Below, piece after piece: positions 6,021-20,463 of a DNA stretch of 24,606 nt. How positions within the stretch are numbered: the stretch's first letter is position 1; the number at the start of each line of letters is the position of its first letter. Origin of the DNA: a virus (taxonomy: Duplodnaviria > Caudoviricetes). The stretch spans positions 1 to 24,606 of IMG/VR virus record IMGVR_UViG_3300037458_000739. One strand, given 5' to 3'. The translations under genes were made by a program, and so were the position numbers. The notes beneath the pieces are model-generated. The model was not told the DNA's origin, did not search any database, and was given only the letters and a program-made list of their open reading frames with translations.

Positions 6021-8691
6021 CTCCTGACTTAACAGAGGTGATTGGAACAGTTTCTGAGACCAGTCTGTCATATTCTTCCTTTGTAATCTCCTCATAAGGA
6101 GCTTGAGCAAACCCATGATCAGAGTGTAGTAAGAAAGACAAGCTCTTGAAGTTATTAGAATAATTTTCTTCTAAGTATTTTCTAATAAGTGGGATCTCAC
6201 TCTTTCTGTAATACACTGTGCAAGAAACACTATTATCTGACCATACTGTTTGTAGCTGTTTGATAGTTTCTAATTGTTTAATTGCAGTCATCTGAGATGC
6301 CAATACAGTACCTTCAGGATATCTAAAGGGGAAAGTTACTACTACTGTATTATAGTCCTCAGAGCCATCAAAGTGCTTGGCAAACTCAACTGGGTACTTA
6401 TTACGTCTACATACTTCTGCTAGCTCATGGCTTGCAGCAATTCTAATTCTCCGATACATATACTGTGCATATGCAGGGTGAATTCCAGGAGTTACGCCTG
6501 GTAATAGACTTAAAGTACCGGATGGCTTAACTGTTGTGAGCTTAATGCTTGTATTAAAATCATTGAGCTCAGAGTAGCGATTATCAAAGTCCCTAAGATA
6601 ATTATAACCTTCATCGCACCACGACAATTGCTCTTGACTTGCTTGCAGAATTCCTGTGAGTCCAATTCCCATCCTCATATTTTTATGAACAATTCTTTCA
6701 GTCTCAGGGTTATGAGACGGAAGCAATAATGAATGTTTATTAATTCTATAAAGAAGTTCTAGAATATCAAGAAACTCTTCTTTTGAGTCTACGTTAGGTA
6801 AGAACACTTCTGCTAAGCAACATGTTTCAAATCTAGCTAATGATTGTTCCGCACACTTTATTGTTACTGGGACAAGTCATTTCTGCTTGTCTCTGCATGT
6901 TACCATGCAGAACAGACTATATCATCACCCATTTCTGGGGTTTATCGTCCGATTTTGTACTGAAAAGATGGAAGAATATATGGAGATACAATTTCTTCAA
7001 AAAGGTTTGAATACATATTTGGAATTGCCAAATCGTATCTCATTCCTTTTTTACGAGTATTTATCTCTAACCCAAGGGTTTCTTTTAAGCTCTTTTTTAT
7101 TAGCATAAGATCGCCATAACAGAGGTTGTTTAAATGTAGTCTATAAGATGGTGTTGCATTGTCCCATCTCTTATCTACATATCTACTTCCATCTGCCATA
7201 AATGCAATTGCTAAAAATTCCTCATCCATCAAAGTGAGCATATGTGGGTCAACCACCTTATGTCCGTTTAAATAAATTCTTTGATGTATTTTTGTAAAGA
7301 TTGGGTGATTATGACTTTGCAAACGTATTTGCTGTTGTCTATCGAACCCATCTTTTACATATATTTGAGGTAAGCTCTGTTTATAACCTACAGGCACTTC
7401 TTCCAGTGATTGTATGACTTTGTCTATGTAATCTTTATGCCTTTCTAACATATTGACTACTAAACACGCATTTGTTGAATTGCCGGGGAACATCAAATGC
7501 CCATCAAACATTGAAAAAGCATACAATCGTTTATTCAGATCTTTAATCATAGTCGTTACACTCTCCATATCGGATTAGCACGGTATTGTCCTTAAAGGAG
7601 TTTCACCGTTTTTAGATAAATTTTCTATAAGAATTACTTCTTAAAGCCCCTTATTGCAAAGGGTTATAACCCTCAACTTCTGGATCGGGATATTCTGTCT
7701 CATTCAATCTTCCAACTTCTCGTGAAAGTCGAAGATTGATCAAGCCATACGGTTCGCCTTTACCTTCGTAGCCATCCCAAAAGTATTCATGAAGATCTTC
7801 TAAATTATCTACAGCGACACTGTTGTTTGACATTCCTCGCCAGCTAGGAATATTACCCATATCCCAACGCTTTGCAAGCAAGTATTCTACATCATCAGGG
7901 TCACCTATTGCAATCTGTGCTGATCTACGAACATTTCCAGCCACGATTATATGGCCGATAATATTCATAATATCTAGAGCATCAATAGGTCTAATCTTCT
8001 TTCCACGCCTCTTCATCAATATCTCAGAGATCTTTCCTATACCCCACACTAAATCTTCAGGCCCGGATGCAACACCTCCAAACCCTTTGATAGGAGTACC
8101 CTTACCTCTGATTACCTGTGTAGAGAAGGTAAACGATCCCTTTTCCTTTGTTTCAGATAGAAAAGCTGCCTTGAGAGTTTTTCCTAGGAACTTTACCCAT
8201 CCTTCTCTAGAATCAGGAATAATGTAATCAGCACCACCATGATCAAGTCTGGTAGGTGCATGGAACCATTCTCTAACTACTGGAAGTTTGTTTATATTTT
8301 TCTTTTGTAAGTTATAACCTACTCCAGAGCCCAATGCTAGCATATCCATTGCCCAGCAGAAAGGTCGTACAGGAGAGTCTATCGTCGTAAAGGCACAATT
8401 TTGTAAAGAAGCTAATCCGAGTCTATCTACTGTCTTTGTACCTAATTGCCACAAGAATCTTCCAGCAACTGAGCCCTTTAGACTTAGAAAGTAATATCTC
8501 AGACGATCTTCTTCTTCTTCAGTAAAACCAACTTTTAGCTGATTCCTACAAGCTTCAATTACTCGTTCAATAGTTTCATTAAATTCTTCAGTTCTGTTCT
8601 CACCCTCTACTGGTCTTGCATATGTTCTCTTATATGTCAGATAACCAACAGAAGACCATGGAGTTGTAGAAGAACTTGGGATTGTTGCCAT
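5968..8691 (-). CDS. nrdJ: Class II (adenosylcobalamin-dependent, monomeric RTPR-type) ribonucleotide reductase, spliced: exon 1 8691-7660, exon 2 6855-5968 (about 639 aa)
   Basis: LQNC, VAGNVRRSAQI, GYNP|CAEQSL..ETCCLAEV restored across the intron, TTVKPSGT, C-terminal ECAGGMCPIR. Confidence 0.93.
6856..7659 (-). mobile_element. Group I intron in nrdJ (804 nt)
   Basis: P1 CCCU|U/AGGGG with U-G at the 5' splice site; P2 UAAGAA/UUCUUA; P3 UUUAUC/GAUAAA; P4 ACGGUG/UACCGU; R GUAACGACUAU; S GAUGAUAUAGUCU; P9 UCUGCAUG/CAUGCAGA; terminal G; excision restores the frame. Confidence 0.93.
6942..7550 (-). CDS. Intron-encoded double-motif LAGLIDADG homing endonuclease
   Basis: Two motifs LYAFSMFDG and LAIAFMADG; probable start MIKDL at 7550 with GGAGAG upstream (alternative start 7568). 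Confidence 0.82.
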   Translation of the reverse strand: MIKDLNKRLYAFSMFDGHLMFPGNSTNACLVVNMLERHKDYIDKVIQSLEEVPVGYKQSLPQIYVKDGFDRQQQIRLQSHNHPIFTKIHQRIYLNGHKVVDPHMLTLMDEEFLAIAFMADGSRYVDKRWDNATPSYRLHLNNLCYGDLMLIKKSLKETLGLEINTRKKGMRYDLAIPNMYSNLFEEIVSPYILPSFQYKIGR

Positions 8692-8750: not shown

Positions 8751-10394
8751 CTAACCGACACTAATAAACTCTTCTTCAATATCACTGTCTGAGGCTACTA
8801 GTCTGCCCGTGTCATAGACATAATAGGCACCTTTTACAGTACCTGTAAGACCGGTATACCTAGACTTAAGAACTCTCATTTTAATTGTATTTCTTATCTT
8901 TTCATTAGCTGCAGTAAGGTCTCTTGCAAATGAAATAACATCAAATGAAATCTGTTTAATAGAACCTGAGCCTCTAATATCATCTAATGAAGGAAGCTTA
9001 CCTTCTTCGAATGAAGACTTGCTTGTAGTCGAAGACTTCCGTAAGTGAGACACAAGACCTATCCAAACAGGATGTCGCTTAACTAGTCTTAGAAGATCAT
9101 TCATAACCTTGTCTTGGGCTTCATTGCCTGTAAGGTTATCAACCCCTTCTGACACTAGAATTGTGATGTGATCAATAAACAAGTACTTACACCCTGTAAG
9201 ACACATATACTCTAATTTATCTACAATTGAGGAATCATTCATTGCACCCTGATGGTCTAGTAATACTACCCTGTCTGATCCAAACACTTCGTCAAATCCT
9301 ACTTTCAGTTCTTCAAGGGGTATTTCTTCCTTTGCAGGATTTCTATTCAAGACCATTCCAGACAGTTTTCTTGCTGTTTCTGCAGGGGATTCTTCTAAAC
9401 TTACAACTCCGATTTTATCAGATGTTGTCGAGAGTACATGAAGCATTATCTCTCGCATGATTGTAGATTTGCCACTGCCTGTGCCAGAGATCAATAATGT
9501 TATTTCTCCCGGTCTCATTCCTTTTAGTTTGGTATTTACACCTTCTAGACAACTTGGGTATGGCAGTGATTTTACATTATTATAGTTTTCGAGAGATTGC
9601 CATAAAGTTTCTTTATTAATAATACCAGAGGGTACATAAGGAGCTGCATCAAATAAATATCCAATTAGCGCTGCTCCACTTTCTTTTTGTAATACTTCAT
9701 TGGCATCTTTATGTGGTAACTTTGCTATTTTTACCTTGTCAATACCGATTATTTTAATTGCATTCTGTGTTGCTTCTTCACCAGCCTTATCATTGTCTAG
9801 ACAAAGAATAACCTCATTAAACGATCTGATCCAGTCTCTGTTCTCTAGCAATGACTTTGTCATCATAGCCGAAGACAGACCAACTACTGGGTAGATCTTT
9901 CCATACTTTTCATAATTAGCCTGAGCAACGCTTAATGCATCAATCTCACCTTCTGTGATTATGAGCCTTCTGCCTGCACCATTAAATCTTTCTTTTCCAA
10001 ACAAGGCGCTTGTATGATTTACCCATGTAAACTTTTTCGGTAGTTCTCTAATCTTAAAAGATGTCTCATTTTCATATGGATAATAGTGTGCTTCAACAGC
10101 CCCGCTATCTGGATCGTGACTTACACGTACTTTAAAAAATTCTAAAACTTCCTTCTTAATTCTTCTATCACTAAAGCCACGAGATAGTGGAAAGTTCTTG
10201 ATTTCTTCGACAGAAATCTTCTTGGCAGGTTCTTTAACTACTTTTGGAATTTCCAATACATCACCTTCTTGTGGTTTAAACCACTGTCTACATGAGAAAC
10301 AGAATGAGGTACCATCTTCATAAATGTTACGTGCATCAGAAGATCCACAGTTATTGTCCAGACATCGGACGTGATACTTGACTATCTTTCCCAT
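8751..10394 (-). CDS. T7 gp4-like DNA primase-helicase
   Basis: N-terminal Zn finger (CLDNNC...FCFSC), TOPRIM IITEGEIDALS and LCLDND, Walker A SGTGSGKS, IDHI, VSHLRK, RGSGSIKQ. Confidence 0.95.
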   Translation of the reverse strand: MGKIVKYHVRCLDNNCGSSDARNIYEDGTSFCFSCRQWFKPQEGDVLEIPKVVKEPAKKISVEEIKNFPLSRGFSDRRIKKEVLEFFKVRVSHDPDSGAVEAHYYPYENETSFKIRELPKKFTWVNHTSALFGKERFNGAGRRLIITEGEIDALSVAQANYEKYGKIYPVVGLSSAMMTKSLLENRDWIRSFNEVILCLDNDKAGEEATQNAIKIIGIDKVKIAKLPHKDANEVLQKESGAALIGYLFDAAPYVPSGIINKETLWQSLENYNNVKSLPYPSCLEGVNTKLKGMRPGEITLLISGTGSGKSTIMREIMLHVLSTTSDKIGVVSLEESPAETARKLSGMVLNRNPAKEEIPLEELKVGFDEVFGSDRVVLLDHQGAMNDSSIVDKLEYMCLTGCKYLFIDHITILVSEGVDNLTGNEAQDKVMNDLLRLVKRHPVWIGLVSHLRKSSTTSKSSFEEGKLPSLDDIRGSGSIKQISFDVISFARDLTAANEKIRNTIKMRVLKSRYTGLTGTVKGAYYVYDTGRLVASDSDIEEEFISVG

Positions 10395-19777: not shown

Positions 19778-19810
19778 TGGTAGGCCGGATAGGATTTGAA
19801 CCTATGACCA
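19778..19810 (-). pseudogene. 3' half of a split tRNA (variable loop, T arm, acceptor strand, ACCA)
   Basis: TGGTC-ATAGG-TTCAAAT-CCTAT-CCGGCCT-A-CCA; acceptor strand pairs with GGGCCGG at 20378-20384. Confidence 0.88.
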
Positions 19811-19814
19811 AAAA

Positions 19815-19890
19815 CGGTATGCCAGCTCGGAGTCGAACCGAGGATCAATATCTTATGAGGATACTGCTTTAACCACTAAGCTACTGGCAC
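19815..19890 (-). tRNA. tRNA with CAT anticodon, probably tRNA-Ile2 (lysidine-modified); ends A-CCG instead of A-CCA
   Basis: GTGCCAG/CTGGCAT acceptor, GTATC-CT-CAT-AA-GATAT anticodon arm, CTCGG-TTCGACT-CCGAG T arm; C4-G69 and C5-G68 (TilS determinants); no initiator features. Confidence 0.85.
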
Positions 19891-20331
19891 ATTGAGAACA
19901 AATTTTCTTCTTGCTTCGATAGCTTCACTTTCAGTATTGAATCTTCCAATATAATGGCGTTTTCCGTTTATATTGTAATGTGCACTATACTTTTTACCAA
20001 CTTTCCAAACACCAACATTATCATGGTCAGATCTTTTTGAGTTTCTGTTATTTTCAGAAGCTGTTAAAAGTCTTAGGTTTTCAATTCTATTATCTGAGCG
20101 ATCACGATTGATGTGATCTACAGTAAAGTTGGCAGGAATTTCGTTGTTGAAATAGATCCATATCAGTCGATGAGCCTGATAAAATCTCATATCTAGTTTG
20201 ATATGAACATATCCTCTGGAATTCATTGTCCCAGCAACACTTCCAGACCTGACTGGACCTCTTTGTTCTTTCCAAAGCAAGAGACCGTTTTTGTATACGA
20301 ATACTTTTTGTAAGTATTCTTTCGTTATCAT
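19876..20331 (-). CDS. HNH-AP2 homing endonuclease (151 aa)
   Basis: Start at ATG 20331 after AGGAG; AHRLIW...VDHINRDRSDNRIENLR (HNH) plus AP2-like GVWKVGKKYSAH..GKRHYIGRFNTESEAIEAR. Confidence 0.88.
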   Translation of the reverse strand: MITKEYLQKVFVYKNGLLLWKEQRGPVRSGSVAGTMNSRGYVHIKLDMRFYQAHRLIWIYFNNEIPANFTVDHINRDRSDNRIENLRLLTASENNRNSKRSDHDNVGVWKVGKKYSAHYNINGKRHYIGRFNTESEAIEARRKFVLNVPVA

Positions 20332-20358
20332 TTTAACTCCTAAAGTTAATAGATAAAT

Positions 20359-20384
20359 ACTCTGACCATCTGAGCTACCGGCCC
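20359..20384 (-). pseudogene. 5' half of a split tRNA (acceptor strand and D arm)
   Basis: GGGCCGG-TA-GCTC-AGATGGTCA-GAGT, followed by no pairable anticodon arm. Confidence 0.85.
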
Positions 20385-20388
20385 TAAG

Positions 20389-20463
20389 TGGTGGAAGCAA
20401 AGGGTTTCGAACCCCTGACCTATACCTTGTAAGGGTACCGCTCTACCCCTGAGCTATGCTTCC
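20389..20463 (-). tRNA. tRNA-Val(TAC)
   Basis: Full cloverleaf GGAAGCA...GTACC-CT-TAC-AA-GGTAT...TGCTTCC-A-CCA. Confidence 0.93.

Follow-up and report, generated by a model that had tools for sequence, protein, structure and literature searches.

The split-tRNA cassette described here is a real and recurrent, splicing-free variant of free-standing homing endonucleases. It lies in a 24.6-kb virus record (IMGVR_UViG_3300037458_000739) that encodes a single-subunit RNA polymerase and that was analysed over its whole length (hereafter the window); a nuclease gene and a complete tRNA gene stand there between the two halves of another, broken tRNA gene. Judged from its sequence, the cassette is probably a homing element, with a nuclease that likely cuts the intact tRNA gene and a tRNA of its own that likely escapes cleavage and replaces the lost one, without splicing. 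Selfish nuclease genes are usually harmless by splicing out or by intergenic position. The layout points to another route, in which the target is destroyed and a sequence-divergent copy is supplied.

Anatomy of the split tRNA gene and its insert

On the minus strand the order is tRNA-Val, 5′ half, short leader, nuclease ORF, complete CAT tRNA and 3′ half, with the following features.

20389..20463, minus strand: tRNA-Val(TAC), the upstream neighbour, 4 bases before the 5′ half and outside the cassette
20359..20384, minus strand: 5′ half of the broken tRNA, covering positions 1 to ~26 with the D arm and the acceptor 5′ strand; it agrees with the intact CAT tRNA of locus L007 at 24 of 26 bases
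20325..20357, minus strand: predicted leader hairpin of 11 pairs that would cover the nuclease ATG and its Shine-Dalgarno sequence (fold and covariation)
19876..20331, minus strand: HNH endonuclease gene, 151 aa, its HNH domain I-HmuI-like and its C-terminal domain probably AP2-like (Pfam, alignment, profile and model)
19816..19890, minus strand: inner tRNA gene, anticodon CAT, likely Ile2, ending in CC without the last A (ARAGORN and Rfam; 66.6 bits)
19778..19815, minus strand: 3′ half of the broken tRNA (anticodon-stem remnant, variable loop, T arm, acceptor 3′ strand, ACCA), 31 of its last 33 bases identical to L007

An earlier note, made from the letters alone, had described tRNA halves flanking an HNH ORF and a complete CAT tRNA, and every part was recovered where that note had placed it. 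The 3′ half proper covers 19810-19778, to which 5 leftover bases (19815-19811) were added. The outer acceptor strands pair 7/7, G1-U72 among the pairs. Pairing of this extent between two unrelated tRNAs has a chance of 0.6% (200,000 draws from a tRNA library built from the fetched loci), and the 5′ strand of the window finds a 7/7 partner in 10 of the 662 library 3′ strands. Within the cassette, ARAGORN and Rfam call the inner CAT tRNA only and leave the orphan halves uncalled. The inner tRNA is complete in its fold, as had been claimed, with the correction that the gene stops short of the final A; it is the sole CAT tRNA called in the window, where ARAGORN finds four tRNAs (Leu, Thr, Val and CAT).

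The insert is 543 bases long and contains the ORF. Positions 27-38 of the outer tRNA are missing, that is, the 5′ strand of the anticodon stem and the loop are gone. No Rfam intron match was found across the insert, and none of the six group I core motifs tried was present in it; both halves of the earlier claim, a lost anticodon arm and an insert lacking a splicing core, thus agree with the sequence. The silence of Rfam by itself is weak evidence against an intron, because Rfam also failed to call an intron in a tRNA-Arg gene of the window, in which both group I core motifs tried as a control were present. Splicing is unlikely because positions 27-38 are absent and joined halves would restore no anticodon. 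The cassette lies outside any self-splicing intron or intein: it has neither the ribozyme core nor the rejoining exons of a group I intron. Nor is it the short, ORF-less insert with both stem strands kept that characterizes the tRNA-in-tRNA introns of Lak phages.

The tRNA-Arg(TCT) gene just mentioned (21939-21246, minus strand) is split after its first anticodon base by ∼617 bases and was missed by ARAGORN and Rfam. Its insert contains a second HNH ORF (21886-21398) and group I core-like motifs (21386-21378 and 21354-21345), and is likely a phage tRNA intron of group I. Together with the CAT cassette, it would place splicing and non-splicing nuclease inserts in one array. A hammerhead-like RNA with a recognisable core (22225-22147, minus strand; Rfam HH9 E 0.015, under the gathering score) lies directly behind tRNA-Thr, and ∼200 non-coding bases separate it from tRNA-Arg.

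The nuclease ORF matches HNH_3 (E 7.6e-20) and, by profile, I-HmuI (1u3e; E 2.2e-6), and the HNH motif residues D72, H73, N81, N85 and N94 are invariant in 12 of 12 aligned sequences. The AP2 assignment of the C-terminal domain is plausible but weak. The Pfam match in the window nuclease (E 0.11, 13.2 bits) falls below the cut-off of 33.3, an AP2 match at E≤1 is found in 6 of 12 family members (best 1.3e-4), and the predicted model of three strands and a helix gives Foldseek AP2 matches of probability 0.97-0.99 but E 0.2-0.5. Of the HNH-AP2 label given earlier, the first part therefore stands and the second stays below threshold. A 174-aa ORF opening at 20400 was rejected as the start, since the alignment of all 11 homologues begins with the Met at 20331.

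The nuclease stop codon occupies positions 13-15 of the inner tRNA, giving a 15-base overlap, and 9 of 11 close homologues have a C-terminal x-Ala, as a stop inside a tRNA D arm would give (read from the proteins only). Compared with the nuclease of locus L008, dN is 0.21 and dS ∼2.2 (pN 0.19, pS 0.71), with synonymous sites near saturation; on these sequence comparisons the gene is under purifying selection. The left junction is found at the same place, 50-56 bases upstream of the ATG, in the window, L008 and L009. In the predicted leader hairpin, 2 of the 11 pairs are changed on both sides among four cassettes and so covary, and the folding z scores are only −1.5 to −2.0 in the three sequences folded singly. 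T4 homing endonucleases are regulated by such ribosome-binding-site hairpins, according to the accessible text of PMC2988022.

Both tRNAs are likely Ile2. The pairs G3-C70, C4-G69 and C5-G68, which serve as Ile2 identity rules and are said not to be universal (PMC1635315, in part), occur in the outer and the inner tRNA together with A73, so that the TilS determinants read earlier in the broken and the nested gene are all present in both. The assignment is made from sequence, and C4-G69 with C5-G68 is also seen in 63 of 544 non-CAT tRNAs. Identity could not be taken from the acceptor stem, a route that was rejected because only one of the five intact tRNAs carrying the outer acceptor reads CAT (one reads TCT and three TTT). 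A 27-base pattern from the 3′ half, free of anticodon information, returned a single locus, the intact CAT tRNA of L007 in an unrelated phage, which agrees with each half at all but two bases. This match supports a CAT type for the nearest intact allele of the broken gene, as the earlier note had predicted.

The cassette in relatives of the nuclease and across phages

Of 309 candidates in a protein search for the nuclease, 42 matched, with 12 others at 60-83% identity, and alignment-based scans for the family gave 61 viral and 6 metagenome loci. tRNAs were called beside nuclease relatives in L008 (= L069), L009, L011, L070 and L074, and the full layout with the same nuclease family was found in L008 (69% identity) and L009 (44%). 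L010 has the 5′ half and leader as in the window, and its contig ends inside the ORF; the start of the same record does not continue that ORF. Branches in the nuclease tree are long, and the placement of L010 beside L009 is all that was taken from it. Searches of genome contigs returned neither a nuclease relative nor a nested pattern.

The DNA match between the window and L008 (658 columns, 74.8%) spans the cassette and its halves with short margins, and the two inner tRNAs differ at 5 of 75 bases. Only one of the 30 window proteins, the HNH protein, matches the 47-kb L008 record (68% complete), and the upstream neighbour there is tRNA-Leu vs. tRNA-Val in the window. A cassette common to the window and the otherwise unrelated L008 shows sideways movement between genomes. 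The outer T stems of the two differ by paired changes, so the halves derive from different intact alleles; those of L008 also have a C4-A69 mismatch. The cassette fits among free-standing homing endonucleases in its nuclease domain with an intact catalytic motif, the lack of an intron and sideways spread.

L009 and L070 come from kin phages: a window protein is found in both at 58-62%, yet their HNH proteins are more distant (44 and 51%). The L009 inner tRNA has an acceptor stem other than that of the window and no ORF overlap, the nuclease gene of L070 overlaps a CAT tRNA and has no halves around it, and in L011 the order is another one, with a 5′-half-like piece and a CAT tRNA both preceding the nuclease gene. 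The comparison with L008 supports the view of nuclease gene and inner tRNA as a single unit. That earlier claim holds for the unit shared with L008 and is loosened by the pair without halves in L070, the other order in L011 and an inner-type anticodon arm that often occurs without a nuclease.

CAT tRNAs beside this nuclease family share the two pairs closing the anticodon loop in 5 of 5 cases, compared with 7 of 135 library CAT tRNAs. Most frequent in that library (37/135) is the arm found in the intact L007 type; the inner anticodon loop itself is the common one, and it is the stem pairs that differ. A scan for the inner-type arm gave 120 loci and 75 CAT tRNAs, of which only two, both already known, are nested, and the arm was rejected as a private mark of nested cassettes. 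A nuclease ORF stands directly upstream of 12 of 62 distinct inner-arm CAT tRNAs vs. 6 of 95 other CAT tRNAs (Fisher p 0.019, among kin that are not independent), a modest enrichment. Counted over the ORFs upstream of inner-type tRNAs, 14 of 30 are nucleases, two of them nested. The inner tRNA of a further layout, L331, retains the common arm. In L349, L399 and L407 a TAT-anticodon tRNA lies just upstream of an HNH gene, which is followed by an inner-arm CAT tRNA; both tRNAs could read AUA.

The layout recurs well beyond this nuclease family. In 4 of the 64 parts of the viral collection, 124 loci fitted a pattern in which the end of a tRNA is succeeded by another T arm and CCA. After removal of one duplicate, a tRNA with an orphan 3′ half was found at 14 distinct loci (the inner tRNA of L080 being read by eye): seven had an upstream 5′ half and an ORF, one was nested without an ORF, and six had no upstream half that was seen. 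A CAT-specific scan (119 loci, 23/64 parts) added L245, L255 and L331, and a record search added L325. The total, 14 full layouts in 13 records, answers the search for 5′ half, HNH gene, tRNA and 3′ half that the earlier note had proposed, and covers seven amino-acid types (inner tRNA CAT in six, Leu and Pro in two each, Lys, Phe, Ala and Val in one each). A rough extrapolation from seven layouts in one sixteenth of the collection suggests about a hundred in the whole. In line with the earlier note, no description of the nested layout was found in the literature searched; it is less unique than it had seemed, recurring with many kinds of tRNA and nuclease.

Twelve of the 14 ORFs match HNH, EndoVII, DUF559 or endonuclease-I-like families, some weakly, and two match a family of unknown function. 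The latter, the nested ORFs of L081 and L325, are phrog_23051, with relatives in Lak, GAP32 and other large phages; their position suggests that phrog_23051 is a nuclease. The L255 ORF has an internal stop and was counted as a decayed case. The outer halves pair 7/7 in 11 layouts and 6/7 in three, although pairing helped to locate the halves, and for the three 6/7 cases the pairing by itself does not exceed chance (a partner was found in 18-70% of shuffles). Polarity is identical in 14 of 14. Compared with 679 intact tRNAs, the nearest intact tRNA of the halves is of the inner type in 11 of 14 layouts and in 6 of the 8 non-CAT cases, with a library that is CAT-enriched and cases that may be kin; in one of the three misses, L245, a CAT loop is visible in the 5′ piece.

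An automatic loose filter for 5′ halves gave positives in 110 of 700 shuffles and overlooked non-standard halves; halves were therefore read by eye and then checked. Left out of the 14 were the duplicates L069, L075, L260 and L400 (= L008), L200 (= L162) and L390 (= L245), the ORF-less nested L129, and 10 rows without CCA after the second acceptor, two of which were viewed. Also excluded were eight loci with an orphan 3′ half behind a tRNA and no upstream half or nuclease seen (L077, L099, L104, L123, L324, L328, L329 and L330), possibly eroded cassettes.

Six of the 14 layouts (L080, L081, L082, L255, L325 and L327) carry an ATAAAT motif between the 5′ half and the ORF start, which we take to resemble a T4 late promoter, and several of these leaders look like hairpins over the ribosome-binding site. 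Nine loci have tRNA-shaped, CCA-ending inserts in the anticodon loop, with both stem strands kept and no ORF (L129 1214-1366, L078 1233-1366, L088, L140, L176, L116, L079, L161 and L181). In L129 a whole tRNA-Phe lies within tRNA-Arg. These inserts resemble the Lak phage introns and look common.

Among cultured phages, BLAST of the region matched tRNA and HNH pieces only, and 0 of 67 records covered 80% of it. The full layout was found in 0 of 8 isolate regions around related nucleases, and two isolate HNH matches were not near tRNAs. In Acinetobacter phage AM101 (L468 417-1159), a nuclease insert of 664 bases, with a 2-base duplication, interrupts a CAT tRNA gene at its anticodon; the locus is annotated as endonuclease only. 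The insert is present in 9 of 98 matching isolate records (AM101 and eight others), the next 27 among the matches listed match both flanks only, and the one flank-only record fetched, AB-Navy1 (L472 188-264), has an intact CAT tRNA gene. For the AM101 element an empty allele thus exists at the same locus in sister phages; for the window, intact alleles were found only in unrelated phages (L007). The AM101 insert has no replacement tRNA, and no intact CAT tRNA was found among the seven Rfam matches in that phage, so replacement is not required. The AM101 case shows that nuclease genes do enter CAT anticodons.

A probable homing mechanism and its rivals

We propose that the nuclease would cut the intact tRNA gene of a co-infecting phage, in or next to the anticodon arm; the target is put there because this arm is the part missing from the window, L008 and L009. 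Repair would then copy the cassette by using the leftover halves as short homology arms, to be renewed from every new recipient. With other pairs in its anticodon stem, the inner tRNA would keep the RNA fold and change the DNA site, and ordinary tRNA processing with CCA addition would free it to take over the lost function. The leader hairpin may damp translation of the nuclease, and the stop codon inside the tRNA would tie the two genes together. The break-and-replace homing put forward in the earlier note gains from a CAT intact allele, from the unit shared with unrelated L008, from type-matched recurrence and from the lack of a splicing element, and is weakened by L070, in which the nuclease and CAT tRNA also occur without halves.

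The main rival is a passive landing, followed by a two-step origin. In the former, a pre-linked nuclease and tRNA were patched into a tRNA break by microhomology repair, the nuclease cuts elsewhere, the halves are leftover debris, and the match in type comes from selection against tRNA loss. Nuclease-tRNA pairs without halves are indeed common, as L070 and most of the 14 nucleases among 30 upstream ORFs illustrate, and the inner CCA of L008 coincides with the 3′ strand of the anticodon stem of common CAT tRNAs, likely a microhomology. Illegitimate repair at microhomologies and distant cut sites are described, and free-standing nucleases often cut far from their own gene (PMC2988022, in the part consulted). 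We nevertheless regard a passive landing as unlikely, given the same left junction in the window, L008 and L009 together with the L010 arrangement, though the halves come from different alleles, and given a single polarity in all layouts and the type match in 11 of them. A two-step origin, with an AM101-like break-only nuclease first and the tRNA captured later as a changeable compensating passenger, would fit AM101 and the eight records whose insert lacks an inner tRNA, as well as the different acceptor stem and absent overlap in L009. It appears distinctly improbable: the window and L008 share the inner tRNA (70/75 bases) despite near-saturated synonymous divergence, 9 of 11 close homologues end in x-Ala (inferred from proteins), and such steps could also be the origin of the homing cassette that we favour.

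The gain might instead be defensive, a tRNA arm left uncut by host anticodon nucleases, with the HNH gene hitchhiking. Phage tRNAs have been proposed to evade such nucleases (PMC10264068, in part), SegB has been linked to tRNA amplification under this defence (PMC13096335, in part), and the inner-type arm is common in free phage tRNAs. This account is very unlikely, as it explains neither a split rather than an in-register replacement nor selection on the nuclease, and the inner anticodon loop is the common one. Excision of the ORF and inner tRNA with ligation of the outer halves, as may hold in Lak phage tRNAs, is hardly tenable, even though the outer halves are well preserved and ORF-less tRNA-shaped inserts in anticodon loops exist (nine seen here; PMC6784885, in part). 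Those inserts keep both stem strands; the outer tRNA here lacks positions 27-38 and would gain no anticodon on joining, its insert has no group I core motif, and the L008 halves carry a C4-A69 mismatch.

Known systems and other features of the window

Several known systems share parts of this layout, as far as the accessible portions of the cited papers describe them. T4 SegB, SegF and MobE are likewise encoded outside introns, with an HNH fold related to I-HmuI and a predicted ribosome-binding-site hairpin (PMC2330249, PMC2988022). SegB also resides among tRNA genes, splitting none according to the earlier note, and cuts and co-converts them; it is described as lying between these genes and cutting near their 3′ ends, whereas the window nuclease lies inside a broken tRNA with an overlapping replacement (PMC2330249, PMC2988022). 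The mobE gene in Aeh1 nrdA and mobA in T4 gene 60 also sit in a critical part of a host gene without splicing; there the pieces are expressed as reassembling polypeptides, in contrast to the window halves, which lack the anticodon and whose insert brings a new gene (PMC2988022). Fungal mitochondrial homing endonuclease ORFs stand between an intact gene and its duplicated terminal fragment (PMC6279837, PMC8393795), but these are organelle protein genes with one-sided partial duplicates, and the window has a whole divergent tRNA between two orphan halves. Lak phage introns place a tRNA-shaped sequence inside a phage tRNA gene, with no nuclease ORF described in the accessible text and with removal restoring the tRNA, unlike the broken tRNA here, which loses the anticodon arm (PMC6784885). 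The AM101 nuclease also splits a CAT tRNA at the anticodon, and its 5′ half equals that of L008 at 25/25 bases; it differs in being endonuclease-I-like, with both halves complete, a 2-base duplication and no replacement tRNA.

The nested tRNA/nuclease/tRNA layout is apparently undescribed. It was not found in the literature searched (nested, split or halved phage tRNA with endonuclease), a search that covers subscription papers poorly and papers in part, and supplements such as the Lak intron table and the SegB lists could hold cases. It is possible, and we put it forward tentatively, that such break-and-replace cassettes are widespread and unannotated: unrelated nuclease folds would each be paired with a recoded tRNA of the destroyed type, the halves would serve as portable homology arms between little-related phages, and insertion would be neutralised without intron, intein or split protein. 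If so, nuclease loss from such cassettes could be one source of the Lak-type tRNA-inside-tRNA introns. They would explain orphan tRNA halves, which ARAGORN and Rfam left uncalled here, and odd tRNA alleles in phage arrays, and would place selfish elements next to codon usage and anti-defence among the causes of tRNA turnover in phages. The nuclease target would be predictable from the flanking halves alone, that of phrog_23051 included. By our own comparison, homing drives equipped with a recoded rescue gene would be the natural counterpart of the cassette.

The window RNA polymerase has a top isolate match of 34% identity, and a search with it gave one IMG/VR relative, L001 (57-68% identity). 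No tRNA match was found in this complete record, which hence offers no empty allele at the locus of the window. In L001 the RNA polymerase gene is interrupted by a stretch (9566-10290) that encodes another HNH relative. Twenty-four sequencing runs, 20 of them recorded as RNA, share 0.06-0.61 of a 4-kb stretch; these run-level shares were left out of the evidence. At 6893-7669 (minus strand), a 208-aa ORF (6942-7568) with no PHROG hit is flanked by two weak Rfam group I intron matches, and the ORFs on either side resemble, by eye, the halves of a ribonucleotide reductase gene.
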